Virus record (IMG/VR): IMGVR_UViG_3300032281_000474
Span: 1-34,692 of that record
DNA length: 34,692 nucleotides
Strand: one strand, 5' to 3'
DNA from: a virus
Lineage: Duplodnaviria; Caudoviricetes
In this document: in pieces, positions 1 through 26,873 of the stretch
How the letters are laid out: each line of letters starts with the position of its first letter
How positions within the stretch are numbered: the stretch's first letter is position 1
Notes under the pieces: model-generated
The model's database searches: none
What the model saw: the letters and a program-made list of their open reading frames with translations, nothing else
Told to the model about the DNA's origin: nothing
Made by a program: the position numbers and the translations under genes

Positions 1-149
1 GCTCGTCTTATGTTATCATTTTTCCAGGTACGGTTAATCCAACCTTCTTTATTAAATCGTGTCATACCTTCCTCTAAGAATTCTGTACAATTTAAATCTA
101 ATATGTCTATGATATTATTCTTGCACTGTATAAGATTTTCCCAAATCAT
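1..149 (-). CDS. pcyX: Ferredoxin-dependent bilin reductase, PcyX/PcyA-like; N-terminal part only, runs off the window; not in the ORF track
   Basis: My translation from ATG at 149 (ATGA overlap with the stop of 146..730): MIWENLIQCKNNIIDILDLNCTEFLEEGMTRFNKEGWINRTWKNDNIRR(A). The MIWE...GMxRFN..GWxNRTWKN..IRRA pattern matches my recollection of phage PcyX N-termini, and a heme oxygenase gene lies two genes upstream. Confidence 0.75.
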   Translation of the reverse strand, partial: MIWENLIQCKNNIIDILDLNCTEFLEEGMTRFNKEGWINRTWKNDNIRR

Positions 150-730: not shown

Positions 731-1274
731 TCATTTCCTTAAACAATTCTGTAGCATATTCAAAACATAATTTAGCTTCAGCGACCACGTTTACTTGATA
801 CGTGTTCATGTAGTTATTTATTATTTCCCTTACAACTCTTTTTAATTCTTCTGGTTTTAGAAATACAAGATATGTATTAGGACCAGGTGTTTTTCTACGT
901 ATCATTTGACCACCATATAAATCTCCCATATGTCTTACATAGATATGTGCATATAATTTTTCTGCATCATTCTTAATACTGTCTAAGTGATACACGTATC
1001 TCATTGTGCTGTCTGTGATATAAGGTTTTTCTGGTTTATTCCAAAGTGAACGGTAGTCGTGGTCTATTTTTTGTGCTCTATCTAAACCTGGCGTTTGTCG
1101 AAACAGGCCATTGGCAAAAGCATACTTTTCAAGTGTAGCATAACACTGTAATAGATTAAACAAATATGTGGAATATAAATCTGGATTTATTTGGCCAGAC
1201 ATAAGAGTTTGTACAAAAGGTTCTGATTCAGCTTTTCTGTGTTCTTCTAAAGTTAAATCTTTTATGTCGGTCAT
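711..1274 (-). CDS. hemO: Heme oxygenase (biliverdin-producing, HemO/Ho1 type)
   Basis: KDLTLEEHRKAE (proximal His helix) and YAHIYVRHMGDLYGGQMI (AHxYxRxxGDLxGGQ distal helix signature). Confidence 0.92.
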   Translation of the reverse strand: MTDIKDLTLEEHRKAESEPFVQTLMSGQINPDLYSTYLFNLLQCYATLEKYAFANGLFRQTPGLDRAQKIDHDYRSLWNKPEKPYITDSTMRYVYHLDSIKNDAEKLYAHIYVRHMGDLYGGQMIRRKTPGPNTYLVFLKPEELKRVVREIINNYMNTYQVNVVAEAKLCFEYATELFKEMNEYKIS

Positions 1275-5936: not shown

Positions 5937-6566
5937 TTACGTTAGTAACCAACCAATAAATGATGAAGTAACATCAGGTGTTGTTTTAAATGTCAGTCTA
6001 ATTGTAGCATAATTTTGATCGCAAGTTAAATTTTCATTTGCGTTTGCTATTTTATAACCGCCTGCTTGTACAACTGTTAAATTATTTGAATTCCATGTTC
6101 CAAACGAGTCAACAAATAAAACTTGATCGTTGTCTGAAGGATTGCTAGGTAAAGTCATATTAAATCCGGCATTTGTTGTGTTAATTATATATGCACCACC
6201 TGCGACTGCTGTAAAGTTGGCAGCTTTATATTCCCATAAAATAGAACTTGCAGAAACCCACGAAGGATTCGCTCCAGCTCCTCCTGTTCGTAAAACTTGT
6301 CCAGCTGTTCCTGCTGGTAATCTTGCTACACCTGAAGCATCTCTATATAACAAATCACCTTGTGTTGTAAGTGCTGTTACGTCTGCTCCTTTTTGTGCTA
6401 ATTTTGACCAATATGTAGCGTTAGCTGTATTATTTCCTGTTGAAGGAGAAATACAAATAAATGTTTCTCCGCCTGAAGTTACAATGTCGTCTATAACGTA
6501 AGCTGTGGCACCGTTGTAAGCGCCTTGAAATACCGGTTTAATTCTTCCTAAATTTAGTGTTGCCAT
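5937..6566 (-). CDS. Short tail-fibre-like adaptor protein
   Basis: One CBM5/12-like repeat (GAYNGATAYVIDDIV...FICI), fibre motif TTQGDLLYR...RLPAGTAGQVL, and a C-terminal domain YIINTT..FNMTLP..P..ND.V.FVD..GTW..NNLTV resembling T4 gp34-type repeats. Confidence 0.75.
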   Translation of the reverse strand: MATLNLGRIKPVFQGAYNGATAYVIDDIVTSGGETFICISPSTGNNTANATYWSKLAQKGADVTALTTQGDLLYRDASGVARLPAGTAGQVLRTGGAGANPSWVSASSILWEYKAANFTAVAGGAYIINTTNAGFNMTLPSNPSDNDQVLFVDSFGTWNSNNLTVVQAGGYKIANANENLTCDQNYATIRLTFKTTPDVTSSFIGWLLT

Positions 6567-8134: not shown

Positions 8135-8142
8135 TATTTATT
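8135..8142 (-). promoter_or_regulatory. Possible late promoter variant AATAAATA
   Basis: One mismatch to TATAAATA, in the short gap before the ATG at 8125; the AT-rich background weakens this. Confidence 0.4.
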
Positions 8143-11100
8143 AATCGTTATTTGCTATTTTCCAACCAAAATTTGCACCACTGTAAACTAAACTAAATCC
8201 TGCATTTTTAGTTGTTACATCCATATCTTCTGTTAGATTCATGATTTTTAAACCATTTCTTTTTACTATTAATTTATTTGTGTCAAAAGTACCTTTTTGA
8301 TCTAAGAAATATATAGTATCACCTATTGCCGGAGCACCAGGTAAATTTATAAAACATTGTGCAGTTGTAGTGTCTATTAAAAATCTATCATTGTTTGCTG
8401 ATGAAAAATTAGTTGAACCATCTCCTACTCTTGTAACAAATGGATTACCACCACCTAAACCTGTCCATACTGTGCCATTATATCCTTCAAAAATTGTTGT
8501 ATCAGTGTTAAATCTAAGTCCACCTGTAAACAAATTACCACCAGTAGGTCTCTCAGCTGTATTACCTGTTGGAGGAACCCATATACCCGTTCCTGCTTGA
8601 TCTCTTGTTAAATATCCTAACATAGCATATTCTGTTGGAATAGCCGTGTTACTATTACCTGATAATGTTTCGTCTGTTGAAAATTCATTAATTGTGGCAC
8701 CTAATTGAGCACCAATAGAACCAAGTTGTAATTCAGATAATCCTGAAAGATCAAAAGCGTCAGCATTTAAAGTTGCAATTCCTGTTGCTTGTTGAATACG
8801 GAATAAATCTCCTACTCTAAAATCTCCATCTTGGTCTGTAGAAACGAAATAAACACGGCCTCCGTTTAATTCATCTACTTCATCTGTTTGATCGGCAGGT
8901 TGTGTTGGAATTCCTGGATAATTTGTTGTAATTATATCGCCTGTACCTACATTTAAAAAATCGTGACCTGTTAATCGGACGTTAGAGTAATTAGATGTAA
9001 CTAAAATTGTATCATTTTCATTTATTGGTCCGTTTATTTGTGTAACACTGTCTGTTAAACGTATTGTAGCTGTACCTTGAGCATTGTTTTCTTCTGTTAC
9101 AGCATTTACACGATAATATGTTGCGTTGCCGGCAAATTTAACGTTTGATCCTATTTTTATTATATTAGAAGAAGTTAAAGCAGTTGTTCCTGATTTTACC
9201 GTTATTAAAGGACCTATTTGACCTATTTGTGCAGTAAGTGAACCGGCAGTTAGATCACCAAAAGTGGCATTTAAGGTAACTTGAAATGTTGAACCATTTT
9301 CTTTTGTAATAGTAACAATTTCACCTTTTCTAAAGTTGCCGCTTCTATTTCTAATGTGTAAATTATTTAAAGAAAGGTTATATCTAAAAAGTATAGCAGT
9401 AGCACCTGATATAGTACCTGTAACTGTAGCTGTACCAGAACCATTTGTAGAAATTGAATTTGAAATATCTGTAGCTGTAGCAGGTGATATAAAAGCTCCT
9501 GCGCCATTGGCAAATCTTATCATATCGCCTCGGCCTTGTACATTAATAGGTGTTTCTGCAACTAATTGACCATCAGCAACAGCACCATATTCTCCGTAAC
9601 AAGATGAACCGTTTAGACTTCTTATGAAACCACCTTCAGTACCATAATAAGATTTATTACAGAAATAAGTAAAACAAGAAACCATTTCTGCTCTACCATT
9701 ACCGTGACACCAAATACCTATACCATCAGAATTAATTTGTGTAAAGTGTGTACCTAAAATTGATTTATTACTTGCAGCGTTTGTGTGTAATAGTCCATCA
9801 ATTTTAATACCAACAGCGTTACTATTTAAAGATGTCATATCTTGTAGATATGGAGATTGAGTTAAAATTGCGCCTTCGGGGTCTAATGAAGTAACAACAG
9901 CACCACCAAAACCGGTGTTAGCACTTAAATGTGTAGAAGTACCTGTCATACCTCTTAATGTCATTAATCGTAAATTTGTACCATCATTTAATAACCACAT
10001 ATAAGAAGCATTGTTTGCTTCTAATGAGGCAACTGTAATTGTTAAAGTACCTGCACCGCCGCAACCTATAGCGGCAGCATTTATTGCTGCCGTATTTCCT
10101 ACTTCATAATTATAACCACCATGATAAACGCCTACAGCAGAAACAATACCACTTGCGATTGTTATATTTACTACAAGACCGGCGCCTGCGCCTGTAGATG
10201 TTGTTGGATGTTTATATTTGTAAGTACCATTCGTAGCACTTGAAATTGTAGATGAAGTTGTAATTGTAGCAATTGTAGATGAATTTCCCGTAGCAGGCCT
10301 TACCTCAACTGCTCGTAACGCTTCACCTCTTACAGATACTCCAGCAGGAACAATTAATGGTAATTGTTCTCTATATGAACCACCTTTTACCCATAATACA
10401 TCTCCGAATCCTACATTACCTACTGTTAAAATTAAGTTTGTTGCGCCACTTAAATAAGATGAACCTGTTATTGTAATTGTGTCGCCGACTGCATAATTTT
10501 TACCGCCATTAACTATTACTATATTGTTAAGAGTAATAGCAGATGAACCATCTTTTGTAACTTGAATGATTATACCTGTTCCTGAACCTGATGTTGATGT
10601 AATACTAACAGTAAATACACCTGCTGCACCTCCTGTGCCTCCTGAAAATGCTGAAAAATCTAAAACATCCTGTCTATTTGCAGCTGCAAGAGCGGCTTTA
10701 ATTGTTTTGTAAGGTAAAGTTTTTGAACCTGGATTATTATCGTTTCCACTATTTGAAACATATAATACGTTTTTACCACCTTCATCATATCTCCATTCAG
10801 GAATTGTTCCATTTGAAGTTAAAATTGAACCTGCAGGTCCCAAATCTAATCGTGAAGGTGCACCTGAAGCGTTTGTGAAAATCATATCACCAGCTTCAGA
10901 CATTACGTTGCCTTCATCGCCGACAGCTACTGTTTCCCAAACTGTTGCGTCTGTGCCTGGTGTTATACCGGTCTGTCTATCTTTTTTCTGTACGTAAGAT
11001 GTTCCTACGTGTCTTACAACTTCACCGATTAAATATGTTGTACCTGAGGAATATGCACCTTTAAATATAAATCCTGTAGATACTAAATTCCAATAAGATG

Positions 11101-11908
11101 AATTTACGGCACCCGTGGCCTGTACAGCTGGATATTGATTTGAATGGTTTGCATTTACTACGTAAGAATTTCCTCCGTAATTAACTACTTCTCCTACTTT
11201 GTAAGCAGTACCATGTGAGTATGCACCTGTAGGTTTGTAACCTGTTGTTACAACGTCCCAATATGCGTTATCAGTAGGTGTGTTACCCGCTGGTGTTTCT
11301 TGTATTGCAACGTAAGTATAACCACCGTAAGTTACTACATCGCCTGTTTGATAATTTGTAGCAGGATTATAACTATCTTCCCATTGTAAACCATCAGAAT
11401 AAACACTAAATTTTGTTTCATCAAAAGCTGAAGCACTTGCTGATGATGTGTGAGCTGTTGTACAAATCCAATGACCTGCACCGTACTTAACTATATCATT
11501 AACTTTGTAATATGTGCTTACTGCGTATGCACCTTTGTAATCTGTACCATCAGTATATAGTTGAAAATTTGCTGTGTCTAATATTGCTACACCAGCTACA
11601 GCGGCAGCTGATGTGTGTTGAGTTGAACAACGATATTGTCTTGATCCGTATTTTACAACATCATTTAATTTGTAATGTGTAGCGGCAGCATAAACACCTT
11701 TAAAAAATAAACCTTCTGTGTGTAACGACCATTTGGCAGCAGTTAAATCAGTGTAAAAATTTGGACTTGTAGATTGTGAAGTATGATTGACTATACAAAC
11801 GTATGAATTACCACCATACTTTACTATGTCGTCAATAACATAAGCTGTTGAGGTAGACCAGTCGCCTCGCCATTTAAATTTAATTCTACCTAATTGAAAA
11901 TCTGCCAT
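8141..11908 (-). CDS. Large tail fibre / virion structural protein
   Basis: 1255 aa. Six N-terminal CBM5/12-like repeats; VLYVSNSGNDNNPGSKTLPYKTIKAAL (typical entry to a pectin-lyase-like beta-helix); PTGNTAERP...LRFNTDT..FEGYNG fibre motif; gp34-like C-terminal domain. Confidence 0.85.
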   Translation of the reverse strand: MADFQLGRIKFKWRGDWSTSTAYVIDDIVKYGGNSYVCIVNHTSQSTSPNFYTDLTAAKWSLHTEGLFFKGVYAAATHYKLNDVVKYGSRQYRCSTQHTSAAAVAGVAILDTANFQLYTDGTDYKGAYAVSTYYKVNDIVKYGAGHWICTTAHTSSASASAFDETKFSVYSDGLQWEDSYNPATNYQTGDVVTYGGYTYVAIQETPAGNTPTDNAYWDVVTTGYKPTGAYSHGTAYKVGEVVNYGGNSYVVNANHSNQYPAVQATGAVNSSYWNLVSTGFIFKGAYSSGTTYLIGEVVRHVGTSYVQKKDRQTGITPGTDATVWETVAVGDEGNVMSEAGDMIFTNASGAPSRLDLGPAGSILTSNGTIPEWRYDEGGKNVLYVSNSGNDNNPGSKTLPYKTIKAALAAANRQDVLDFSAFSGGTGGAAGVFTVSITSTSGSGTGIIIQVTKDGSSAITLNNIVIVNGGKNYAVGDTITITGSSYLSGATNLILTVGNVGFGDVLWVKGGSYREQLPLIVPAGVSVRGEALRAVEVRPATGNSSTIATITTSSTISSATNGTYKYKHPTTSTGAGAGLVVNITIASGIVSAVGVYHGGYNYEVGNTAAINAAAIGCGGAGTLTITVASLEANNASYMWLLNDGTNLRLMTLRGMTGTSTHLSANTGFGGAVVTSLDPEGAILTQSPYLQDMTSLNSNAVGIKIDGLLHTNAASNKSILGTHFTQINSDGIGIWCHGNGRAEMVSCFTYFCNKSYYGTEGGFIRSLNGSSCYGEYGAVADGQLVAETPINVQGRGDMIRFANGAGAFISPATATDISNSISTNGSGTATVTGTISGATAILFRYNLSLNNLHIRNRSGNFRKGEIVTITKENGSTFQVTLNATFGDLTAGSLTAQIGQIGPLITVKSGTTALTSSNIIKIGSNVKFAGNATYYRVNAVTEENNAQGTATIRLTDSVTQINGPINENDTILVTSNYSNVRLTGHDFLNVGTGDIITTNYPGIPTQPADQTDEVDELNGGRVYFVSTDQDGDFRVGDLFRIQQATGIATLNADAFDLSGLSELQLGSIGAQLGATINEFSTDETLSGNSNTAIPTEYAMLGYLTRDQAGTGIWVPPTGNTAERPTGGNLFTGGLRFNTDTTIFEGYNGTVWTGLGGGNPFVTRVGDGSTNFSSANNDRFLIDTTTAQCFINLPGAPAIGDTIYFLDQKGTFDTNKLIVKRNGLKIMNLTEDMDVTTKNAGFSLVYSGANFGWKIANND
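10930..11875 (-). repeat. Six ~50-aa carbohydrate-binding-like protein repeats
   Basis: Consensus [FYW]xGxYxxxTxYxxxD/EVVxYGxxxYxxxxxH seen six times in the translation; boundaries approximate. Confidence 0.8.
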
Positions 11909-16067: not shown

Positions 16068-16075
16068 TATTTATA
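16068..16075 (-). promoter_or_regulatory. T4-type late promoter TATAAATA
   Basis: Exact match overlapping the stop of 16071..16466, upstream of the RBS/ATG at 16046; marks the return to structural genes. Confidence 0.7.
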
Positions 16076-16466
16076 TAAAAAATTCAACCCTATAATAATT
16101 TCTTATATCTGGCACTATGCCTTTATTTTCATTGAAAGGCATAATTTTCTTTAGTATTTCGTCATAAGTATAAGTATCTTCGTCATACGTTTTAAAGTAT
16201 GGATCATTACCATATAACAAATTCTTATCGTTTAATAATTCTATAAAATCTTCTTTAAAGTCTTTAGATAACCAATGTGCATAACATATAGCTACTACGT
16301 AACTTTTAGAAGGATAAACAAATCCCATATCTTTATCATAAAAATACTTTACAGCATTTTCTATTATGTCTTTAGAAAATTCTACTTTAATCTTATTTAA
16401 ATCGTCAGTGTGTTCGTCATTCAATTTATGATATAACGCTTGCCTGACTTTCCATTCTTTTATCAT
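16071..16466 (-). CDS. Hypothetical protein, last gene of the rSAM operon
   Basis: 131-aa ORF overlapping the rSAM gene end by 41 nt; no recognised motif. Confidence 0.65.
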   Translation of the reverse strand: MIKEWKVRQALYHKLNDEHTDDLNKIKVEFSKDIIENAVKYFYDKDMGFVYPSKSYVVAICYAHWLSKDFKEDFIELLNDKNLLYGNDPYFKTYDEDTYTYDEILKKIMPFNENKGIVPDIRNYYRVEFFI

Positions 16467-17370
16467 AGTAATCTAATAGTCCTTTATATCCATTACAACT
16501 GTTATTCAAATCTTTTACATAACGATAGTGTTCTGTTAAACAATGTCCATAGTATTTACAACTCTTACAAATGTCAGATATATTTTTTAATGGTTCATTG
16601 TCTGCCCATTTTAAATAATCTTTAAACGATTGCAATTCTAAAAAGTATTCTTTATCGTTTTTATCAAACTCTAATACACCAAAGTTTCCATTCGGTGTTA
16701 TGTAAACATGATTATTTGAAAATGCGTTATACTCTTTTTTTAAACTCTTAATTATTTTACCTTCATTTATAAAATCAAATTTTTTCTTTACATCACTTTC
16801 AATCCACTTCTGTACAAATAATTCAAAATCTTTATGTGTTACAGGTTGATTGTTTGCCTGATTTATTGAGTAAGGTTTTATCTCTACACTTTCAATACTA
16901 GAGCAAAGATTTAACTTATGTATCATTTCATCTACATTCATATTTAATACTTTTTCACTTGCTAATATTAAAACGGCTATAGGCACTGTACTTTGAAACA
17001 TATTGTTATAAACTAAATCAGATTTTTCTCGTGCATCAAAGTCATAACTTACACTTAAATAATAATCATCTTTAAAAAATCCTTCGTGCAACATAGAATA
17101 GTTTGTTATAATGTTTATTTTATCTTTATAATATTTTCTTATAATATCTTTAAGGCCGTAAAAATAATCTTTTTTTAAAGCACCTATCTCTCCTCCATAT
17201 AAATCAATCCATTCTATAACTCTTACTTTACTAATTTCTTTTAATTTTTTATCTAATATAGCCAAGGGGATTTGTTTTTGGTCGCCTAATTGTTGAGAGG
17301 TTAGATAACAAAAGTTGCATCTAAAATTACAAAAGTAACTAGGATTTATAGAAACAGTTATTTTATTCAT
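16426..17370 (-). CDS. Radical SAM protein with partial SPASM-like C-terminus (rSAM-4)
   Basis: CNFRCNFC (CxxxCxxC), YGGE, ITN; C-terminal CKSCKYYGHCLTEH...CNG. Confidence 0.9.
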   Translation of the reverse strand: MNKITVSINPSYFCNFRCNFCYLTSQQLGDQKQIPLAILDKKLKEISKVRVIEWIDLYGGEIGALKKDYFYGLKDIIRKYYKDKINIITNYSMLHEGFFKDDYYLSVSYDFDAREKSDLVYNNMFQSTVPIAVLILASEKVLNMNVDEMIHKLNLCSSIESVEIKPYSINQANNQPVTHKDFELFVQKWIESDVKKKFDFINEGKIIKSLKKEYNAFSNNHVYITPNGNFGVLEFDKNDKEYFLELQSFKDYLKWADNEPLKNISDICKSCKYYGHCLTEHYRYVKDLNNSCNGYKGLLDYYDKRMESQASVIS

Positions 17371-17940
17371 TTAATATAATATTAAATCTACTGGCATAGC
17401 CAATCTTATTTTACCGTAAAAGGTTTTTACATTATGATATAAGAAACTAGGAAAAATTATAAATTGTCCAGTTTTAGGTGTTATGGTTTTATTATTAAAC
17501 CATTTATTATATTCCTCTTTATATCCTCTATTTGCATTAAATCTAGGGTCTTGTAATACTAATTCACCACCTTTATCGTTTTCTTCACAAAGTAAATAAA
17601 ATACAGCACTTAAATAAGAACCTGAATGATTGTGCAAAGGCATAGAATAAGAAAATCCCTTGCCTGTAATCCATGCTTTTAAATGATATTTTTTTTCTTT
17701 TAAACTTAACTCAAATTCTTTCTTGTAAAACTCATCAAAAGCAGGTATTATTACATTATCTTTAAACTCTAATAGATTTTTATTTTCTAAAATGTTTTCA
17801 TTTATTAAATTAGATTTTACTTTAATTTCATCACCATAATTAGATAATATGTAATTAGAAGTTTTTTCTAATAAAACCTTATTAGACACATTACCGTTAA
17901 AAACAGGTGTGGGCCAACAATAATTAAATCCTTCTTTCAC
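17371..17940 (-). CDS. Putative 2OG-Fe(II) oxygenase (TIGR02466-like)
   Basis: AWI...HNHSGSYLSAVFYL...GGEL.LQDPR...IIFPSFLYHNV...R; GTG start in a GTGA overlap. Confidence 0.85.
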   Translation of the reverse strand: MKEGFNYCWPTPVFNGNVSNKVLLEKTSNYILSNYGDEIKVKSNLINENILENKNLLEFKDNVIIPAFDEFYKKEFELSLKEKKYHLKAWITGKGFSYSMPLHNHSGSYLSAVFYLLCEENDKGGELVLQDPRFNANRGYKEEYNKWFNNKTITPKTGQFIIFPSFLYHNVKTFYGKIRLAMPVDLILY

Positions 17941-18470
17941 TTTGTTAATCTTTCATCTATATAATAATTAAAACTTGCAACACGTCTAGGCAATTTAAGT
18001 TTTAAAGATGTTACCATGTGTTCAAATTTCATACTTTGATTCATTACCAATAAGTCATATTGTTTTGGATAGTGTTCTATTAATTCTCTCTTACTTAATG
18101 TTTCTCTAAAACAAATGGCACCACCTATATCGTTGTCCATAGTGTCAAAATATGCAAGTATGCAAAGATTAGGTCCTTCAATCAAATCATTATGCCAAAC
18201 CAAGGTGGCCTTATCCATACCATTTACTAAGTCTATCTTATCTGACAACCTATAATTAACGTCTATTTGTTTTACGTATTTTTCACCTAGATATTTTTGT
18301 GTATCTTGTAATTGTTTTTTTATTGATTCATCTTTAATAACAACTTGTAAACCTACGTGACCAGCATCTGTCCATTTAATCTCATTCAAATCAATAAATT
18401 CAAAGGCGTCTTTATCGTTTGTTAAAACATAACCTTGTGTTAAAAAATTATCCAACATTTCTACTTTCAT
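17937..18470 (-). CDS. 2OG-Fe(II) oxygenase (prolyl-hydroxylase-like)
   Basis: WHND (HxD)...GGAICF...FEHMV...RRVASF; the start may be MLDNF, four codons downstream. Confidence 0.8.
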   Translation of the reverse strand: MKVEMLDNFLTQGYVLTNDKDAFEFIDLNEIKWTDAGHVGLQVVIKDESIKKQLQDTQKYLGEKYVKQIDVNYRLSDKIDLVNGMDKATLVWHNDLIEGPNLCILAYFDTMDNDIGGAICFRETLSKRELIEHYPKQYDLLVMNQSMKFEHMVTSLKLKLPRRVASFNYYIDERLTK

Positions 18471-19548
18471 CTATATAAGGTGTTAACTCAATATTATTTA
18501 GACCGTTTGCACTTAATACTTTTGGTGCAATACTTTTCATAATCTTACAATGTTCTTCTACAACATTATGTTTTTTAAAATCTTTAATCGTTTTTCTGCA
18601 ACCATTACATATACTAAACATAGGACATTCAAAACAAGCTCTTTTCATACTATATAATTTCATATCACTTTGTAAAGGTTTAAAAAACTCGCCATTCATT
18701 TCTCTATCAAAATCAATTGACTTGTCTTTATCGTCACCAAAAGCACCACAAGAATAGTAATCTCCACTAGGATTTAATGCACGTATTCCTTCATCACACT
18801 TTCTGTTTTGAGGACAAAGTGTGTGTTCACCTCTTACTCTTTTCATCATTTGTTTAGTATTAAATTCCCAATGGTACATATTTTGTTCCCATATCTCTAC
18901 ATACTTTTGATATATCTTACTTAACAAATAAGGTTTATCTTGTGCGCCACTTGACATAGCATAGTTTAATTTACACTCCACACCTACCTTATTAGCCTTT
19001 AATAAATTATGAGTTGTTCCATAAGGTATCTTGCCATCAGACATTTTATAAGCTAACTCTACATTTTTTAATGCTAGATGTTCATTTTCAGGAACAATGA
19101 CCGCAATAAAGTCAGGTCTATAACCACAGTATTCTAACATAGTATCTGAACATTTCCAAAAATCTTCTTCTGTAAATTCTGAGTAATCACCTTTTAAACG
19201 GCCACCACCATATTGAAAAGATGTATTAACTCCTACTCTATCGTTATTAAATAGACTAGCCCATTTTTTAGGTTTCTTATAAAACGGCCATAGATTGGTA
19301 GTAAGGGATATTGATGTATCATATTCGTGTTCATCTAACCAATCAATAATCTTCCAATAATAATCTGGTTCTACCATTAATGGGTCGCCACCATTTACTA
19401 TGATTGTTTTTGTATGTGGAAATCTTTTTAAAAAACGAAAGATATAATTATGATTTAATAAATCACTTTTGTGCATAGCAATTTTAGTGCTAGAACAAAA
19501 CGTACATTTAAAATTACAAGCTTCAGTAGGTTTAATAATTAAATCCAT
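18448..19548 (-). CDS. Radical SAM/SPASM domain protein (rSAM-3)
   Basis: IIKPTEACNFKCTFC, GGDPL, TTN; SPASM-like CPQNRKC...NPSGDYYSC...CFECPMFSICNGC...HC. Confidence 0.92.
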   Translation of the reverse strand: MDLIIKPTEACNFKCTFCSSTKIAMHKSDLLNHNYIFRFLKRFPHTKTIIVNGGDPLMVEPDYYWKIIDWLDEHEYDTSISLTTNLWPFYKKPKKWASLFNNDRVGVNTSFQYGGGRLKGDYSEFTEEDFWKCSDTMLEYCGYRPDFIAVIVPENEHLALKNVELAYKMSDGKIPYGTTHNLLKANKVGVECKLNYAMSSGAQDKPYLLSKIYQKYVEIWEQNMYHWEFNTKQMMKRVRGEHTLCPQNRKCDEGIRALNPSGDYYSCGAFGDDKDKSIDFDREMNGEFFKPLQSDMKLYSMKRACFECPMFSICNGCRKTIKDFKKHNVVEEHCKIMKSIAPKVLSANGLNNIELTPYIDESRNVG

Positions 19549-20126
19549 TATATTATATTAGGATTGTTTCGTGGTTGGTCTTTTACTTTCCATCCTAGAA
19601 CTAATGATGTACGAGGTTTTTCACCAAAATAAGGTTTAACTCTATGTGTTAAAAATCCTGGAAATATAATTAATCTGTTTTGTTTAGGCAGAATATTTAC
19701 TGCATTATTTGGATATTCGGCAAAAGTTAAATTTTTATAGACAGTTAACTCTCCACCTGTCCAAATTTCTTCATTATAATCACTATCTATATAATATATA
19801 GCTGTAATAAAAGAACCTTCAACCATATCATTATGTGGTTCATATAAATGATTCGATACTTTTGTTTGTTCGTATTTGTATAAATTGCCCTTTTGAAAGT
19901 TTGACATTTCCAAATTATTAAAATCAATATTATTTTGATAACAATAATTTACCACTGTTTTTTTTGCATAAAGTAGAAACAATTGTTGACTAGGAGTTAA
20001 ATTAAAATTATCTTGTCCTTGAATAGTATTTACTATATCACTTTCTTTTTTTAATTGATCTATTAAAATTTTATCTAATAAAAAATTATCTAATATTTGA
20101 ATAGTATCTGTAAATTTAAATTGCAT
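19548..20126 (-). CDS. 2OG-Fe(II) oxygenase (prolyl-hydroxylase-like)
   Basis: HND...ITAIYY...WTGGEL...NRLIIFPGFLTHRVKP...RTSLV; ATG 20126 (MQFKF) preferred over the non-ATG start at 20162. Confidence 0.85.
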   Translation of the reverse strand: MQFKFTDTIQILDNFLLDKILIDQLKKESDIVNTIQGQDNFNLTPSQQLFLLYAKKTVVNYCYQNNIDFNNLEMSNFQKGNLYKYEQTKVSNHLYEPHNDMVEGSFITAIYYIDSDYNEEIWTGGELTVYKNLTFAEYPNNAVNILPKQNRLIIFPGFLTHRVKPYFGEKPRTSLVLGWKVKDQPRNNPNII

Positions 20127-20649
20127 AACGTATATAATATTTATCTTGTTTTTTAAAACCAAATTGTTGCATTATCTCTCTATGATAAGGTTCTTTTTGT
20201 ACTCGTTTTTGATTCATAGTTAAATGTAATTGTTCAATATACGAACCAGTAGGAACTATTATTTTGTGATTAGGAAAAGTTTTAATTATATCTGAATACA
20301 TTTGTCTTATTAATTTTCTTACACTTATCTTTGTTCTTTTTCTTAAAACGCCTGAATATTTTACACTACCTAATACAATTTCATTATCGTAAATATGCAA
20401 CATAGCTATACCCTTTTCTAACTTCCAATTTTCTTTACAGGTAACCCATTGTTCTTCGTTTTTATTTTTTATTGTATCTTCGTAAATATCAGGATCAGTT
20501 TCTTTTGTTCCCCACCATATAAAGAAGTGTGCTTGCCTACCACATATTCTAGGAACATATGGGTGTTTTATTGGTAAAGTATCTAAAACTATATCAACAT
20601 TAGGTATACTTAATTTAATTGGCGATGTAGTTTCTTTGTACTCGTACAT
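20116..20649 (-). CDS. Hypothetical protein in the rSAM operon (weak GNAT-like pattern)
   Basis: ORF coupled on both sides; ATG 20649 (MYEYK) chosen to shorten the overlap, track start is 20688. Confidence 0.6.
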   Translation of the reverse strand: MYEYKETTSPIKLSIPNVDIVLDTLPIKHPYVPRICGRQAHFFIWWGTKETDPDIYEDTIKNKNEEQWVTCKENWKLEKGIAMLHIYDNEIVLGSVKYSGVLRKRTKISVRKLIRQMYSDIIKTFPNHKIIVPTGSYIEQLHLTMNQKRVQKEPYHREIMQQFGFKKQDKYYIRYAI

Positions 20650-21667
20650 CTTCGATATATCTGTGCGTAAGTTTATAGACACACTCATCTAACTCCTCTC
20701 TATATCTATAATCGTGGTTCATAAAGCATCCTAAAGTACATCTGTCTAAGAACTCACAAGAAGCACAATTATATTTTTCTAAAAATTTGTTTTCAATGAT
20801 ACTATTATCCATACGTTTAATAGGAGATTTATACATACTTAAAGACTTTTTATCTTGTACTAAATTACCACACATACATAAAGTACCATCAGCTAGAACC
20901 AACTTACTAACTCTACAAGAAGAATAGTTTTTCTTATTAAAAATCCAATCTTTTACAGGATGTACGTGAGGATAATTATCTACACAATGTTTAAAAAACT
21001 TTAATAGTAATTCATCACTTGGCATATTAAACTTAGCGTGTTCATCTGGCATATAATAATCAAAGTAAATGTATTTACCACTGTTATAGAGGTAATCAAA
21101 GTATTCATCGCCATTGTTTAAATAATATTCTATATTAGGTTTAGTTAGTAAACAAGAAAAACAAGTTACTCTATCGCCAAAGTAATCAACGTTACTTTTA
21201 AATATTTCAAACTGTATTTTATTGAAACGGCCTCGTGGGTCGTATGAAGTTGTAAGTCTTGCAGGTATGTCATTGTCTTTAGAATATTTTAATAAATCTT
21301 CTATTTGGTCAATACCTTTTTTATCAGTAACTAAATTAGATACCCAATTTAGTGAATAAGATTTATTATATTTTTTTGCTATTTGAGATATACCTAACGA
21401 TAATTGCTTATAGGCTTCATTTAATTCTTTTGTGTAAATGCTGGGTGCAAATACTTCACCTCCCATTATATTTAAAGTAACTTTGTTCTTAAACTCTCTA
21501 CTAATAAACTTTTCAATAGGTTCTAATTTATTTAAAACAGTATCTATACCTATTTTATCTTGGTGATTTTGCCAGCAGAAAGAACAACTTAGATTACAAA
21601 ACTCAAATAAATGTATTGTATATTCCTGTTCAGGATCTCGTTTAGGTTCAATGATAAATTCTCTCAT
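20615..21667 (-). CDS. Radical SAM/SPASM domain protein (rSAM-2)
   Basis: CNLSCSFC, MGGE, VSNL; C-terminal SSC...ADGTLCMC...CASCEFLDRCTLGC...C. Confidence 0.92.
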   Translation of the reverse strand: MREFIIEPKRDPEQEYTIHLFEFCNLSCSFCWQNHQDKIGIDTVLNKLEPIEKFISREFKNKVTLNIMGGEVFAPSIYTKELNEAYKQLSLGISQIAKKYNKSYSLNWVSNLVTDKKGIDQIEDLLKYSKDNDIPARLTTSYDPRGRFNKIQFEIFKSNVDYFGDRVTCFSCLLTKPNIEYYLNNGDEYFDYLYNSGKYIYFDYYMPDEHAKFNMPSDELLLKFFKHCVDNYPHVHPVKDWIFNKKNYSSCRVSKLVLADGTLCMCGNLVQDKKSLSMYKSPIKRMDNSIIENKFLEKYNCASCEFLDRCTLGCFMNHDYRYREELDECVYKLTHRYIEDVRVQRNYIAN

Positions 21668-21673
21668 TATAAC

Positions 21674-22777
21674 CTATAACAGTTGATATTTACTTAAAGC
21701 CTCGGTGTTGTTGTTTCTTTTTAAATTGAAAATATGTTGTATTAAAACATAATTAACATTTTGAAAATCAAATTTAGGAACTAAACAAGTATCAAAGGGA
21801 TTTGCAACAACGAAGTCAAGCACAGTATTCATTTCGGCATTAGTAATAGTATCTTTAGCTGCTAATTCTAAATAGTCAAAAGCACTAAACATTGTTCTAT
21901 TAATTTCCATTCCCTCTACATCAGCATAAATTTTCTTTATTAAATTTCTTAAACCAGTTATTTTTTCTTGTGATAAATTTTCTATTTTACAGATACCGTA
22001 AACACCAGAACCATAACTATCTTTTTGTTCCCATATAGTATTGTCAGCGTAATATTGTAATGAAGTTACATTTGCAATAGGATTGTTTGAATTTAAATCA
22101 ATGTCGTTTTCTGTAAAGTTTAATGATGTTTGAAAATTTTTATTTAATAAGTTCAACAATATCATTTCTCTATTATCCGTAAAACATTCTTTTAACCATC
22201 TTTTTAAAAACTTGTGTAATGTGGTATTTAATTTTGCCGTGTATTTAGATGAACCACTGAAATAGTCTGATAATAATAACTCATATGAATAATCTAAATT
22301 TAAATCTTTAACTTTTGTTCTCTCACTATCTGTAATAGAAATAGAATTGAAAACACTATCTAAATTACCTAATCCTATCCATAATTGGTCAGCTGTAGTT
22401 AAATGATTTGGTTGTAATTGCGTGTTACTAACAATTCTTTCTTTATAAACCGTTAATTGTAATATCTTATTAAAAGCGTTTAAATCTACATTAGGAAGAA
22501 TAGTTTTAATCCAAGTAACTAAGAATTTATTAAAGTTTTCTTTATCTGCATATACTACAAGTTTTTTACCTGATGTATCAACATGGGTTTTTATATCTAC
22601 TATTAAGTCTGAAAAATTTGTTGGAAAAGTAAGTGAGTAATTTAATAAAGTACCTTTTAATACTGTTTGTAATTCTTGGTACATTTGTACACCAGACTTA
22701 CCTATTACAACCCTATCTAAATCTGGTTGAACATAGTCGTCTAAACTTAAATATACTTTATTGAATAAATGTATCAT
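21674..22777 (-). CDS. Hypothetical protein (367 aa) in the rSAM operon
   Basis: Long ORF, TAATG-coupled to the upstream gene; mostly helical-looking; no recognised motif. Confidence 0.75.
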   Translation of the reverse strand: MIHLFNKVYLSLDDYVQPDLDRVVIGKSGVQMYQELQTVLKGTLLNYSLTFPTNFSDLIVDIKTHVDTSGKKLVVYADKENFNKFLVTWIKTILPNVDLNAFNKILQLTVYKERIVSNTQLQPNHLTTADQLWIGLGNLDSVFNSISITDSERTKVKDLNLDYSYELLLSDYFSGSSKYTAKLNTTLHKFLKRWLKECFTDNREMILLNLLNKNFQTSLNFTENDIDLNSNNPIANVTSLQYYADNTIWEQKDSYGSGVYGICKIENLSQEKITGLRNLIKKIYADVEGMEINRTMFSAFDYLELAAKDTITNAEMNTVLDFVVANPFDTCLVPKFDFQNVNYVLIQHIFNLKRNNNTEALSKYQLL

Positions 22778-23457
22778 TACTTATTTATACCTTTTAATGT
22801 TAATTCTCTTGCCTGCATATATTCTTTACCTCTACCATTAGCTATTGACCAAGTTAAAAGAAAAAGAGGATTCTTATCGTTTGCCCAATATTCAAACATA
22901 TTTTTTCCTCTAAAGATATAGTCATTAAAGTAATGTGTATAAAATTTTAACTTATCATTATTTATTTTTCCATAAAAACTAAAAAATCTATCATGTTTTA
23001 AAAGACTTACAAAGTTAACACCTTCCATATCTCTTGTTTCATCTTTAGGAAAAGATTGTGCATAATCTCTAAAGTGGTCAGAATTTAACATAAACATATT
23101 ATAAACAGATAAACTTTCCAATTTATTTTGCCATTTTTCTAATGTTTCAAAGTTTTCTGAAATAAATTTATTATAATTTTCATTTTTAGAAATGCCTTTC
23201 ATAGTAAAAAGAATATCTATAACAATATTTTCTAAAGACGATATACTAACTAATGAAACAGAACTTAAATAATCTTTTACCAAATCTAAGTCTATATTTT
23301 TTATGTCTGCTGGTATATCTAAATTACTTAAATACGTAATTAATTTTTTACCTTTTAATTCAGATGTTGAATAATCAATTAAATAATTTATATCTTTATC
23401 TGTAAAGTATTTTTTTAAATTTTCAATTGATATAGGAGCACTTGTTTCAATAACCAT
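22777..23457 (-). CDS. Hypothetical protein (226 aa) in the rSAM operon
   Basis: Long ORF, TAATG-coupled directly behind the CHxS-repeat protein; no Cys, no recognised motif. Confidence 0.75.
   Translation of the reverse strand: MVIETSAPISIENLKKYFTDKDINYLIDYSTSELKGKKLITYLSNLDIPADIKNIDLDLVKDYLSSVSLVSISSLENIVIDILFTMKGISKNENYNKFISENFETLEKWQNKLESLSVYNMFMLNSDHFRDYAQSFPKDETRDMEGVNFVSLLKHDRFFSFYGKINNDKLKFYTHYFNDYIFRGKNMFEYWANDKNPLFLLTWSIANGRGKEYMQARELTLKGINK
22782..22789 (-). promoter_or_regulatory. Possible internal T4-type late promoter TATAAATA
   Basis: Exact match in the last codons of 22777..23457, 4 nt before the ATG at 22777; could be chance in AT-rich coding DNA. Confidence 0.5.
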
Positions 23458-23990
23458 TATCTTCTTCCTCTACTACCATGACAAGAACCATGGCAGCTTG
23501 AATGACAAACATCAACGTTGTCTGTTATAGTTGTTGTTCTGATTGTGTTGTATGCCGTTGCAATATTACCAAAATATGTTTCTAATTTTGTATCATCAAT
23601 AGTAGAGTTGGCAGTTATATCAGTAGCAGTAATAGCACCTAACGCATCTCTATTACCAGTATCTAAATGTGCTATTGCTGTCTGGTCAAAATTAACTCCT
23701 GCACCTATTATAGTTCTTGTTGCTCTTTGTTGTCTTATGTTTGTATATAAAGCAGCTTCAGTTTCTAATACAGTTTTAATTGTTGTAGCAGTAATTAAAG
23801 TACCTGTGATGTCGGCGCCTGTAATGTTTATAGAGTCGCCTGCTATTGTGCCTGCGTAATTGCCGGCAGGCATTTCTGCGAAAGGTAAAGAATCTGTGCC
23901 CCAAACAATATTTGCGTTTGCAACGTCTGTTACTAAATCTTCAAATTTATCTACTATACCTTGTTTACTAATAGGATTAGATATGGTCAT
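23457..23990 (-). CDS. Virion-like protein with C-terminal (CHxS)3-RGRR motif; candidate rSAM substrate/precursor
   Basis: T/A/I/G/D-rich body lacking Cys; ends ...VDVCHSSCHGSCHGSRGRR*; directly follows and overlaps an rSAM/SPASM gene. Confidence 0.7.
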   Translation of the reverse strand: MTISNPISKQGIVDKFEDLVTDVANANIVWGTDSLPFAEMPAGNYAGTIAGDSINITGADITGTLITATTIKTVLETEAALYTNIRQQRATRTIIGAGVNFDQTAIAHLDTGNRDALGAITATDITANSTIDDTKLETYFGNIATAYNTIRTTTITDNVDVCHSSCHGSCHGSRGRR

Positions 23991-25011
23991 AACTTATATT
24001 TTGTTTTAACTCCTTCATCAAACTTTTTGGTGCACCACATATATCTCCTTGCCAAGCAAGTTGGTGGCAATCACCTCCACAAAACTCAAAAACTTCACAA
24101 GAAAAACAAATAGGGTTTCTTGCACGTTCACAAGCGATGTTTTCTATTCTAACTGGACTATTTATAACAGTTTTTATATCGTCAGTTATATGACCAAATT
24201 GAAATTCTGGTGCTGAATTAGGGCATCCTGATATGGTTCCATCTGCATTTAAAGTAAATATCTTTTGTTCACAATCTCTACAGAAAGTACCACCTTTCAG
24301 AAATCCCGTTTCAAATTTACTGTATATGATTTCTAAAGTATCATTATCAAACCAGCTTCTACAATCATTCTCTTTTGATTGATGGTGCATTTTTAAAAAC
24401 CATTTATCTTGTTCTATATTGTCAGGAAATATCTCTGGATGTAATTTAGCATTACCGTTACCTGTTAATCTTTCAAAAGATACCTCCTGTACGCCTAATT
24501 CTTTAATCCATTTTAATAGTTTTATAGGCTCTATATTAATAGTGTCTTTTGTTACACTTATAAACAATCTGATTGTAACACCTTTTGAAAGTAAATCTTT
24601 AACGTTTTTTTCCCATAAATTATATTGTTTATCATTTTCAAATCTTATTTTAGGGTCCCAACTTGTACCCATACGATTATTTAATGGCCCTTTTATAAAA
24701 TTATAATGTTCTTCTTTTAATTTAAAAACTAAATTAGATGTAATACCAAAGGTACTTCTTTTCCATAAATCTTTACATTCGTCATATACTTTAACCATGT
24801 GCGATACAGGAACTAAAAAAGGTTCACCACCGTGAAACTCAAAGTGTATGGAATCTTTGTCGTCATTAAAATGTTGTTTAAATCTTTTTATAAAATCTAT
24901 CGTTTTTGTAGGATTAAAATAGATTTTGGCACCATTAATACCACTTGTAAAACAATGTTTGCAATTTAATTGACAAGTTTCTGTTGTCTTTATATAAAAC
25001 ATCCAATTCAT
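23977..25011 (-). CDS. Radical SAM/SPASM domain protein (rSAM-1)
   Basis: YIKTTETCQLNCKHC, FHGGEPFL, TSNL; full SPASM-like CRDC...NADGTISGCP...CFSCEVFEFCGGDC...C. Confidence 0.93.
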   Translation of the reverse strand: MNWMFYIKTTETCQLNCKHCFTSGINGAKIYFNPTKTIDFIKRFKQHFNDDKDSIHFEFHGGEPFLVPVSHMVKVYDECKDLWKRSTFGITSNLVFKLKEEHYNFIKGPLNNRMGTSWDPKIRFENDKQYNLWEKNVKDLLSKGVTIRLFISVTKDTINIEPIKLLKWIKELGVQEVSFERLTGNGNAKLHPEIFPDNIEQDKWFLKMHHQSKENDCRSWFDNDTLEIIYSKFETGFLKGGTFCRDCEQKIFTLNADGTISGCPNSAPEFQFGHITDDIKTVINSPVRIENIACERARNPICFSCEVFEFCGGDCHQLAWQGDICGAPKSLMKELKQNISYDHI

Positions 25012-25460
25012 TAATTATATCCTATACTTAATGCCCAAGTGAAAGGTAAACTTTCAACTTTATGTTTTGCACCTTTGGGTATTGATATTGATTGGCCTTC
25101 GTTTACTATTATGGGATAATTTTCTACAAAAACTTTTTTACTACCTTTTATAACACATAACAGAACGTTTATATCATCTGTGTGTTCAGGAAAAGAAAAT
25201 CCGCCTAACTGATTATAAAATAGATGTACATTTTTCATTTTAAAATTCAAATCATAATCTTTCAATAGTTGTAAATGATAATTATTATCTTCTAATCCTT
25301 CAACTTTTATATGAGGAATGTTTTTATAATTTTTTACCCAATTACTAAAAGTTATTTCATTCTTAACTTTATAGTCTTTACCTTCTTTATCTATATAAAT
25401 TATTTGATTATTTTCGTATCTTGTGAAGGATATTAATTCATCATTTAAAGCATTAATCAT
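25011..25460 (-). CDS. Cupin/JmjC-like protein
   Basis: SFPEHTDDINVLLCVIKGSKKV...G.SISIPKGAKHKV (HxD...H, similar to cupin-4/JmjC hydroxylases). Confidence 0.75.
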   Translation of the reverse strand: MINALNDELISFTRYENNQIIYIDKEGKDYKVKNEITFSNWVKNYKNIPHIKVEGLEDNNYHLQLLKDYDLNFKMKNVHLFYNQLGGFSFPEHTDDINVLLCVIKGSKKVFVENYPIIVNEGQSISIPKGAKHKVESLPFTWALSIGYN

Positions 25461-25484: not shown

Positions 25485-26873
25485 TTATAGTATAACTGCC
25501 TCGATAAGGCCTTTTTCATTGTCTTCCAATGCTATAGCAAAAACTTTATTAAATTCATCACTTACTTTTGCTGCATAACCACCGTTACCTGCAACTAACT
25601 CGTCGCCTTTTTTTATATCGCCAGTTACTTTGACTAAAACACGGCCTTTTAATGCAATTGGTTGACCTTCTGCTTTTGCATTCATTAAAAAAGCAGGTTT
25701 TTCAGATATAACACCTAAGGCTCTATGTCCTACAAAACATTCTGTTACTTCTTGTGAACCACCTATCATCACAACAGTACCTATATTATAATTTTTATCT
25801 GTTTTATAAATTTCGGCTAAATCGGCGTAATTTGCTTGTGCAGCAGTTGTTGTTAAAACATTTGTACTAGGATTGTATGTCAAATCTGTATCTGTTTTTA
25901 TTGTTTGAGCACCTGTTGCAGCTGCGGAAAAAGTTATGAAATTAACAGCATTAGCAGAATTATCTGCTGTTAAAGTAACTAAAGAGGCTGTGGCACCTGA
26001 ACCTGTTAGTGTTGTTGCATTTATAGTGTTAACAGTTAATGTATCTGCTGATAGATTTAATTTTGCAGCTCTAATTGTATTGTCGGCAATATCTTCATTT
26101 ATAATCGTACCATTAGCAATCATTGTACTTGTAACCGTACCTGTGTCGCCTGTTGTTACAACTGTACCTGAAATATTAGGTATTGTTATTGTTCTGTCGG
26201 CCGTAGGGTCAATAACTGTTAATGTTGTTTCAAAGTTATCTGCTGTTGCGCCTTCAAAAACTATATCACCTGAAGTTAAATTTAAACTTGTGCCTTGTAA
26301 TGTACTAGAAAATGTTCCTGTTGTACCTGATACTGCACCGGTAAATGCACCCGTTGTTCCTGATAAGGCACCAGTAAATGTACCAGTTGTTCCTGATATT
26401 GCGCCTGAAGAAATTAAAGAAGTTGCGTTTATTGCACCAGCAGATAATGTACCGGTTGTTGTTAAATTTTCATTACTAAAACTTATAGAACCTGTTGAAC
26501 TTGTAATTAATCCTGAAGATATTGATATAGTGCTGACATTTAATCCTGTTACAATAGAAACTGTGTTTGGAAGACTTAAAGTTAAAGTGTCAGGTGAACT
26601 TACAACGGCATTAATTTGATTATTTGCGCCTACAACATCTAAAGTTTGACCAGCACCAATAACTTGAATTGTTGAACTCGAATCTCTAATCGTCCAACCA
26701 GCAGCAGAAAAGGCAACAGCCGCTATTTCTACAACAGCACCACAAATAGAAGTTGCTGATAAACCAGCACCTGCAAGTATTGAAGGATTCCCAAAATCAT
26801 TTGTAGTTAAGTTGTTTAACTTAACTCGCATTTGTTCTAGTGTATCAGTGGTATTGATTATTGTAAATGCCAT
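25485..26873 (-). CDS. Tail fibre with C-terminal intramolecular chaperone/autoproteolytic-like domain
   Basis: MAFTIINTTDTLEQMRVK.N (T4-like fibre N-terminus); T/G/S-rich shaft; YADLAE.Y...GTVV...GVIS..PA.LMN...IALKGRV.VKV.G.I.KGD.LV (peptidase-G2-like C-terminus). Confidence 0.8.
   Translation of the reverse strand: MAFTIINTTDTLEQMRVKLNNLTTNDFGNPSILAGAGLSATSICGAVVEIAAVAFSAAGWTIRDSSSTIQVIGAGQTLDVVGANNQINAVVSSPDTLTLSLPNTVSIVTGLNVSTISISSGLITSSTGSISFSNENLTTTGTLSAGAINATSLISSGAISGTTGTFTGALSGTTGAFTGAVSGTTGTFSSTLQGTSLNLTSGDIVFEGATADNFETTLTVIDPTADRTITIPNISGTVVTTGDTGTVTSTMIANGTIINEDIADNTIRAAKLNLSADTLTVNTINATTLTGSGATASLVTLTADNSANAVNFITFSAAATGAQTIKTDTDLTYNPSTNVLTTTAAQANYADLAEIYKTDKNYNIGTVVMIGGSQEVTECFVGHRALGVISEKPAFLMNAKAEGQPIALKGRVLVKVTGDIKKGDELVAGNGGYAAKVSDEFNKVFAIALEDNEKGLIEAVIL
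26300..26410 (-). repeat. 11-aa (33-nt) degenerate tandem repeat in the fibre shaft
   Basis: SGAISGTTGTF-TGALSGTTGAF-TGAVSGTTGTF-SSTLQGTS; boundaries approximate. Confidence 0.8.

Follow-up and report, generated by a model that had tools for sequence, protein, structure and literature searches.

In the HXS system, the full-length protein HxsA carries basic His-x-Ser repeats and is matured by the radical S-adenosylmethionine (SAM) enzymes HxsB and HxsC together with HxsD; these radical SAM enzymes are required for a +8 Da change on the SHRSS motif of the whole HxsA protein, which is cleaved during maturation (PMC13128918). Triceptides are characterized by an aromatic-to-Cβ link on three-residue motifs, with C2 of His as the linked atom in HAA, HNR, and HTK (PMC11499958). 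Ranthipeptides (SCIFF/CteB, freyrasin/PapB, NxxcB) possess evenly spaced Cys residues beside Ser or Asn in short, six-Cys precursors with a leader, and QhpD and anSME are SPASM enzymes that mature enzymes, their targets being side chains (Cys, Ser, or Asp) within whole proteins (PMC8326336).

Here, we analyzed a stretch of 34,692 nucleotides of viral DNA (IMG/VR record IMGVR_UViG_3300032281_000474; this whole stretch is referred to below as the window), a 34.7-kb genome fragment from a T4-like phage that is estimated to be 22% complete. An open reading frame (ORF) on its minus strand (23457-23990) encodes P0001, a protein of 177 amino acids whose C-terminus (CHSSCHGSCHGSRGRR) consists of three Cys-His-x-Ser repeats closed by Arg-Gly-Arg-Arg (23460-23507, minus strand); the translation terminates in DVCHSSCHGSCHGSRGRR, followed by the stop codon. 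Judged by its invariance in alignments and by residue statistics, this tail is the likely target of a modification. It is probably the substrate of four neighboring radical SAM enzymes, and the protein carrying it is likely to reside in the virus particle with, or near, a chaperone-assembled tail fiber. We predict with good confidence that the tail receives some enzyme-made covalent change; the fuller reading that we prefer, a radical SAM-matured terminal tag on a virion-associated, fiber-linked protein, appears probable on balance. On this reading, the gene cassette would work like the HXS and triceptide systems; it lies outside HXS and is not of the classical SCIFF type, its enzymes scoring far below the cut-offs of the HXS and ranthipeptide families.

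The tail and its radical SAM neighbors

The Cys residues of P0001 are located at positions 162, 166, and 170, and its His residues at positions 108, 163, 167, and 171. As the initial annotation of this DNA had noted, all three Cys and three of the four His lie within the last 16 residues (nt 23460-23507); the codons agree with this, and only one of 200,000 shuffles of P0001 placed three Cys and at least three His there. The same annotation had made its proposal depend on conservation of the motif among homologues, which is borne out by both profile and pattern searches. Precisely in (CHxx)3RxRR end 107 of 114 homologues, the remaining seven being truncated or deletion-bearing. A profile search listed 696 relatives of P0001 (E ≤ 0.001) among representatives at 50% identity, and the exact tail motif closes 131 of the 145 that were new. 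A DNA tail pattern without a stop-codon requirement marked at least 120 viral loci (about 270 by estimate), 80 of which had flanking sequences; 77 of these are real ORFs, every one terminating at the motif, and the three chance matches were dropped, as were the chance matches among prokaryotes described below. In an alignment of 56 sequences with identities down to 27%, ten of the 12 invariant columns fall within the tail and include those of its three Cys and three His. The tail is strictly C-terminal in a family whose body varies from 124 to 434 amino acids. Since 179 distinct DNA tails draw on Ser codons of either family and on alternative codons for Cys, His, and Arg, the conservation is exerted at the protein level. 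The tail is a real feature of this family and far from a chance arrangement.

A tblastn search with P0001 gave no match among isolate phages, and isolates were reached through c3 (the gene that follows the tail gene), radical SAM enzyme A, and the locus L033. Fifteen isolate records, including Atu_ph07, Phosso, pPa_SNUABM_DT01, and S13, possess both c3 and enzyme A, and the tail gene is present in all four isolate regions that were fetched. Some phages harbor two copies of the tail gene in tandem. Tandem short versions (125-140 amino acids) occur in L008, L028, L035, L036, L040, L055, L075, L076, L078, L079, and L086, where they are followed by up to five divergent radical SAM enzymes with CxxxCxGC-type motifs; enzymes of the A-D type are found further along such loci where the sequence extends enough (L037, L046, L070, L147, L155). 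The notion that these short homologues lack radical SAM neighbors was rejected on account of the divergent enzymes. The body domain is also part of longer proteins, i.e., P0128 (453 amino acids), the BFVD entries A0A8S5USJ7/J8/V2 (504-660 amino acids), and L224 (about 10030-10960). Tail-less paralogues adjoin the tail gene in L014/L224, and L143 has two tailed copies.

Radical SAM genes had been expected beside the homologues, and they were found there in both directions of the search. A radical SAM gene is present in all 77 real viral tail loci; conversely, the closest 80 of 384 loci encoding enzyme A comprise 75 with a full tail gene, three in which a contig end truncates the homologue, and two that end before the tail gene. 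The 77 tail loci further contain c3 (71 loci), c7 or a gene resembling it in size and position (66), a c4- or c17-type fiber gene (63), a cupin (52), a 2-oxoglutarate (2OG) oxygenase (41), and a B12-binding radical SAM enzyme (17); these counts are lower bounds set by short flanks, and some of the loci overlap or are closely related. In the window, the four enzymes are encoded on the minus strand as A (23977-25011, 344 amino acids), B (20615-21667, 350 amino acids), C (18448-19548, 366 amino acids), and D (16426-17370, 314 amino acids), each assigned through Pfam, PHROG, and NCBIfam. Judged by their sequences, all four qualify as radical SAM/SPASM enzymes, with a CxxxCxxC motif (residues 13/17/20 in A) and C-terminal Cys residues for auxiliary clusters conserved in every subfamily; D retains only four conserved C-terminal Cys, and A has no N-terminal extension. 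Mutual similarity among the four is about 24-30% over short alignments. Every one of them has orthologues of its own, and T4-like phages, jumbo phages, and Bdellovibrionota chromosomes repeatedly contain A, B, C, and D as a set.

The tight two-way linkage argues against a different role of the cassette, in which the enzymes target DNA, sugars, or the fiber itself and the tail protein is a scaffold or passenger. Phage radical SAM enzymes are involved in DNA hypermodification, and a radical SAM module of a Thermus phage has been proposed to modify DNA (PMC11437467), yet the recurring neighborhood clusters contain no DNA-modification family, and the cassette persists in cellular chromosomes amid housekeeping genes. 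We regard such a role as most improbable.

Residue rules and the proposed chemistry of the tail

Among 1173 His-x-X positions in 391 distinct tails, the third residue is Ser in 1048, Asn in 86, Ala in 33, and Asp in four cases, with Gln and Pro occurring once each; Gly, Thr, Val, and Ile do not occur at any of the 1173 positions. The second residue varies freely and includes Gly (246 cases) and Thr (102 cases). A third residue that is never Gly or β-branched fits a cross-link from His to Cβ, and thereby the definition of triceptides as an aromatic residue followed by X2 and a Cβ-bearing X3 (PMC11499958).

Variants of the tail reveal which of its elements are constant. L285 (4310-4918; G330:C77), a locus on a phage-like contig, encodes a tail of period-3 His-Ser-Ser repeats with a single Cys beside enzymes A-D and a fiber gene. 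Among the variant tails, CHSSHSSHSSHSSRGRR is accompanied by all four radical SAM enzymes, and another locus carries CHSNHCSHSNHGSRGRR. In L156 (3907-4266), the tail has grown to some seven repeats; this contig, whose ends translate like what we take to be sequencing-adapter sequence, probably contaminates its assembly. Repeated cores are also found in P0112, P0113, and P0115. Scans of viral contigs for variant tails yielded zero and one matches. These variants indicate that His-x-Ser/Asn and RxRR are the constant elements, unlike the inner Cys residues. A heme-c reading of CxxxCH was set aside, since the repeats overlap and one variant has one Cys.

The initial annotation had likened the tail both to His-x-Ser precursors and to SCIFF/ranthipeptide cores. 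L285, in which period-3 repeats and a single Cys go along with four retained radical SAM enzymes, strengthens the former link. The latter has lost ground, since variants without the Cys between repeats exist and all enzymes score below the PapB and Hxs cut-offs. Among the best five NCBIfam families considered per window protein, PapB is the top match of enzyme A at 52.5 bits (cut-off 340); A scores 34.3 bits against HxsB (TIGR03978; cut-off 370) and C 31.6 bits against HxsC (TIGR03977; cut-off 267.9), and none of c3, c7, c11, and c12 has an NCBIfam match at E ≤ 0.01, HxsD (TIGR03976) included. The best weak matches of the cassette enzymes are peptide and protein maturases, with YhhB, AmcB, FxsB, and GrrM appearing among the orthologues (an orthologue of A scores 51.3 bits against YhhB, cut-off 445, and 43.7 bits against FxsB, cut-off 370).

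Like HXS, this locus pairs several radical SAM enzymes and a small partner with a full-length protein that bears basic His-x-Ser repeats. Unlike those of HXS, the repeats have a period of four, include Cys, and occupy the very C-terminus, where RxRR closes them, and four radical SAM subfamilies with added oxygenases operate in a phage or predator setting rather than in periplasmic defense; period-3 repeats of the HXS type are absent from the window and were encountered in L285 only. With the triceptide synthases (3-CyFEs: HaaB, YhhB, HtkB) it shares repeated His-x-X motifs with a Cβ-bearing third residue and short radical SAM/SPASM enzymes. It differs from them in its folded substrate of 124-434 amino acids in place of a short precursor, its four enzymes, its interleaved Cys residues, and scores that remain far below the cut-offs. 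Evenly spaced Cys beside Ser or Asn recall the ranthipeptides; in contrast to their precursors, P0001 is a folded protein of 177 amino acids with three Cys and no NCBIfam match, the inner Cys can be absent, the His are invariant, and CxxxCxxC begins at residues 11-24 of the enzymes and so leaves no space for an N-terminal recognition domain. As in the case of QhpD and anSME, SPASM enzymes would work here on side chains of a whole protein, although the target looks structural and bears a repeated terminal tag.

The third-residue rule, the HAA/HNR/HTK motifs of triceptides, the tail variants, and the +8 Da change in HXS lead us to favor the formation of rings centered on His, to which Cys thioethers or bound metal would add a second layer. 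The radical SAM enzymes would abstract hydrogen at Cβ of the residue (Ser, Asn, or Ala) that stands two positions past each His and thereby close His-to-Cβ rings, while the Cys residues would be converted to thioethers or bind metal; this joint chemistry is a serious possibility that falls somewhat short of an even chance. The chances seem about equal for and against the folded body replacing a leader, in that it would both carry the tail and be recognized by the enzymes, possibly together with c3. The oxygenases and the optional B12-binding radical SAM enzyme may add lineage-specific hydroxyl or methyl groups.

The invariance of three Cys and three His would also suit an unmodified tail in which these residues are the ligands of Zn, Fe, Cu, or a small cofactor made by the cassette. 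His-based metal sites occur in phage fiber tips, and a small third residue may suit the turn of such a site. A metal site leaves the near-invariant Ser/Asn and RxRR unaccounted for, however; moreover, L285 loses two of the three Cys and keeps His-x-Ser and four radical SAM enzymes, and the weak matches of these enzymes point to peptide and protein maturation. We consider plain metal binding unlikely.

Probable virion association and links to fibers

Thr, Ala, Ile, Gly, and Asp make up 55% of P0001, compared with 50-51% of two tested fiber-like neighbors and 22-29% of the products of the other 12 cassette genes, and Lys plus Glu amount to 5% of its body. The GC content of the gene is 36.3%, as opposed to 22.6-30.2% in the other 12 cassette genes. 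Both the fiber-like composition and the lower AT content relative to the enzyme genes had been pointed out in the initial annotation and hold up. The raised GC content reflects the choice of amino acids, since third-position GC (18.5%) falls inside the range of the other 12 cassette genes (12-22%); a foreign origin of the gene was ruled out on the same grounds. An AlphaFold2 (AF2) model of P0001 (mean pLDDT confidence score 87.5) shows a confidently folded body (residues 1 to about 161; three helices and a β-hairpin) that continues directly into the first Cys of a low-confidence tail. PHROG profiles gave a weak match to phrog_35144, a family of unknown function, and matches of P0001 in the ESM Atlas all remained below 0.9, with no usable match for c7. 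The best match among solved structures (VIA Z 5.1, root-mean-square deviation 5.2, 143 residues aligned) is a designed protein; the clear structural matches are uncharacterized phage proteins only, gp170 of phage Atu_ph07 among them.

This homologue is the one member for which presence in particles is documented. The 131 virion proteins reported for Atu_ph07 include gp170 (31.89 kDa, eight peptides, 35.16% coverage; PMC6102473, Table S5), and the fiber protein gp176, the c4 orthologue, is listed as well; gp164-169, gp171, and gp172, the neighbors of gp170, are absent from that table, its flanking enzymes included. If only fully cleaved peptides of 7-30 residues are allowed, the sole set of eight peptides totaling 104 residues leaves out the tail peptide; under other length limits or with missed cleavages, sets that include it fit equally well or better. 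The detection of gp170 supports the earlier description of P0001 as a virion-like protein. With conservation of the motif, radical SAM linkage, and a homologue in virions, the annotation's overall proposal of a radical SAM substrate tail on a virion-like carrier is partly supported, its likeness to SCIFF and ranthipeptides less so; a crosslinked or metal-binding tip on the particle, as that annotation imagined, would be a further step.

On the gel of Atu_ph07 particles, gp170 is spread over bands 1-9 with its maximum in band 1, the band of highest mass and the peak band of proteins of 87-139 kDa (PMC6102473). Such smearing of a 31.9-kDa protein would be in keeping with intermolecular stapling, in which the radical SAM enzymes join neighboring tails, or tail and fiber, into a covalent stabilizing polymer. 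Yet the loading buffer lists no reductant, band 1 is likewise the peak band of gp321 and gp616, and the fiber gp176 has its maximum in band 4, close to the mass of the protein itself (PMC6102473); furthermore, known SPASM maturases form intramolecular rings (PMC8326336, PMC11499958). Stapling appears very unlikely to us, and the band shift of gp170 may stem from disulfides or from a stable oligomer.

A T4-type late-promoter box, TATAAATA (24159-24166, minus strand), is located inside the coding sequence of enzyme A, 176 nt upstream of where translation of the tail gene starts; it was identified by the T4 late-promoter consensus. TATAAATA occurs within 300 nt upstream of 92 of 159 distinct family genes (about five expected), at differing offsets. 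Among 26 viral genes for enzyme A that encode x-I-N-S at this site, 24 use the box spelling, compared with 3.6% expected from codon use. Box and spelling bias together suggest that a separate late transcript is made for the tail gene, as would be expected of a structural gene. Two lake RNA libraries contain contigs that are nearly letter-identical to the gene and end with adapter at 24138 and 24144, just downstream of the box; the contigs reveal neither transcript starts nor strand, so that these ends are a weak hint.

The late promoter and the virion homologue also bear on the idea that P0001 is the precursor of a released RiPP (a peptide that is made by ribosomes and modified after translation), with the body as an oversized leader and the modified core cleaved off as a toxin, signal, or counter-defense peptide. 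A core that is modular and repeatable (L156, P0112, P0113, P0115), a body of 124-434 amino acids, and the cleavage of HxsA during maturation (PMC13128918) are in line with it. Besides the two findings just named, a confidently folded body that is directly continuous with the first Cys and neighborhood clusters without a recurring protease or transporter family speak against release, to which we assign a very low probability indeed.

The cassette is also present in bacteria. In a prokaryote collection, 30 of 53 pattern matches are real, all with radical SAM neighbors, and 20 of them are titled Bdellovibrionota; the remaining 23, mostly from GC-rich genomes, are chance matches. A search restricted to Bdellovibrionota found matches in 16 of 401 genomes, and two further real loci recur there. 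Several of the bacterial cassettes reside on long contigs amid housekeeping genes. When the unassigned ORFs were scanned, proteins with an S74 chaperone domain were found at a distance of 10 kb or less in nine of 21 Bdellovibrionota-type loci. Five S74-positive genomes contain one to four S74 genes each, 14 in 17.9 Mb in total, and seven of these 14 lie within 10 kb of a tail gene; at this density, chance would account for about 0.3 of 21 loci, and since the five genomes were picked for a nearby S74 gene, they supply this density only. Fiber genes at viral loci and S74 genes at bacterial loci together indicate that the cassette tends to adjoin chaperone-assembled fibers.

A type IV pilin-like N-terminal motif, assigned by eye, is present in nine of ten S74 proteins, two of which pass Pfam N_methyl. 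Proteins of about 320-440 amino acids with such an N-terminus and an S74 domain occur in L139, L143, L149 (2169-3410, minus strand), L158 (8246-9469, plus strand), L159, L164, L169, L175, and L179. They are possibly minor pilins tipped with a phage-type fiber. The MAT fibers of Bdellovibrio (PMC10769870) are likewise S74-chaperone fiber proteins; unlike these proteins of about 1000 amino acids, the neighbors found here are shorter and start with pilin-like N-termini. Neither "radical" nor "pilin" occurs in the main text of PMC10769870.

Several observations weigh against a radical SAM-matured tag on a virion-associated, fiber-linked protein. The virion evidence comes from one phage, purified by polyethylene glycol, and concerns a protein of 296 amino acids that is 16% identical to P0001 in a structural alignment. 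In rows gp57-707 of the published table, counted by hand, three of 37 proteins of 25-40 kDa peak in band 1 (gp170, gp321, and gp616), and with no reductant listed, disulfides among the three Cys could explain this position (PMC6102473). Neither the window enzymes nor their orthologues attain the cut-off of any NCBIfam maturase family, and neither fold nor sequence searches with P0001 gave a clear match to a solved structure, virion proteins included (for Foldseek against the Protein Data Bank (PDB), none at E ≤ 0.001), which does not make its fold new. Many family loci are closely related, so that the counts of conservation and linkage are not independent; the first X position is constrained by the DNA pattern in part of the tail set, and a small, non-Gly third residue could reflect a turn or the geometry of a metal site. 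Twelve of the 21 bacterial loci have no S74 gene within 10 kb, and no evident signal peptide is present on the tail protein, which leaves its export in bacteria unaccounted for.

With regard to function, a rigid, cationic, His-rich end might help the fiber module to cohere or to engage a host or prey surface, an idea that we put forward tentatively, and predatory Bdellovibrionota may use the same kit on pilin-like S74 fibers. More doubtful is a shared fiber-maturation kit, in which four radical SAM enzymes would turn the (CHxS)3-RGRR tag into a polycyclic knot, possibly metal-binding or cross-linked between subunits, that caps chaperone-assembled adhesion fibers. Such a cap would sit on the tails of T4-like and jumbo phages and on the pilin-S74 fibers of Bdellovibrionota and might aid the grip on, or breach of, the Gram-negative envelope. 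In that case, RiPP-type chemistry would serve to build a viral attachment organelle.

If the maturation of a virion tag holds true, virus particles bear a protein rebuilt by RiPP-type radical chemistry; a search of open-access main texts found no such virion modification and no study of the tail family, the enzymes being mentioned at the annotation level only (PMC11898562, PMC8066314), and "radical SAM" does not occur in the main text of a jumbo-phage survey (PMC7824862). A purpose would also emerge for a so far unexplained cassette of 10 genes, which is found in host-recognition regions of the pelagiphage-like type and in jumbo phages under consideration as crop biocontrol agents, and four new radical SAM subfamilies would share one portable 16-residue tag. 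Cultured phages carrying the cassette make the system testable, and the pilin-like S74 link in predatory bacteria bears on the question of prey recognition.

Further genes of the cassette and the window

The window's genes on the minus strand are arranged in the order baseplate gp8, VrlC-like DUF4815 protein, small virion protein, c4 fiber, cupin, enzyme A, tail gene, c3, c7, enzyme B, c12, 2OG oxygenase, enzyme C, two 2OG-type genes, enzyme D, c11, and further fiber genes; all features in this paragraph are on that strand. Immediately upstream of the cassette, c4 (25485-26873) encodes a tail-fiber-like protein of 462 amino acids with an intramolecular-chaperone cleavage domain (Peptidase_G2 and PHROG tail-fiber matches). 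The cupin (25011-25460, 149 amino acids; Cupin_2 match) is a candidate JmjC-like oxygenase; one of three scanned orthologues lies above the JmjC_2 cut-off and two lie below it. The start codon of c3 (22777-23457, 226 amino acids, unknown family) overlaps the tail gene's stop codon; its AF2 model (pLDDT 92) has no Foldseek match in the PDB at E ≤ 0.001, and sequence searches with c3 likewise yielded no clear match to a solved structure, which again does not make the fold new. No profile similarity was found between c3 and c7 (21674-22777, 367 amino acids), which is without a family match in Pfam, PHROG, and NCBIfam searches. The accessory protein c12 (20116-20688, 190 amino acids, unknown family) was found in 21 loci, and the small gene c11 beside enzyme D (16071-16466, 131 amino acids) in 25 viral and many Bdellovibrionota loci. 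A 2OG-Fe(II) oxygenase was assigned by Pfam at 19548-20162; two genes of this type follow at 17371-17940 (Pfam) and 17937-18470 (through a weak 2OG-FeII_Oxy_3 match of orthologues).

The optional B12-binding radical SAM enzyme, absent from the window, is part of the cassette in L013 (2879-4657) and 16 other viral loci, and its best weak match is a KedN5-type C-methyltransferase. The cassettes of RSF1 (L181:12602-13718) and S13 (L184:11931-13108) include two genes annotated as dihydrofolate reductase, which could be a source of reductant or one-carbon units. At a like genome position, after YomR-like genes, Ralstonia phage RP31 carries a different radical SAM cassette (ORF70-76; L185:19173-26743) that comprises ORF72, ORF73, and ORF75 with radical SAM-type annotations, ORF74, an MgoB-like protein, and ORF70, a Cys-free protein of 125 amino acids with two His-Thr-His motifs; it may represent a parallel system with another substrate. 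None of its ORF68-76 is among 32 listed virion proteins, and RP31 has no bearing on the tail family. Outside the cassette, the left end of the window (146-1274, minus strand) encodes one more 2OG-Fe(II) oxygenase as well as a heme oxygenase, and tail-fiber-like proteins with CBM_5_12 carbohydrate-binding repeats are encoded at 8141-11908 and 5937-6566 on the same strand.
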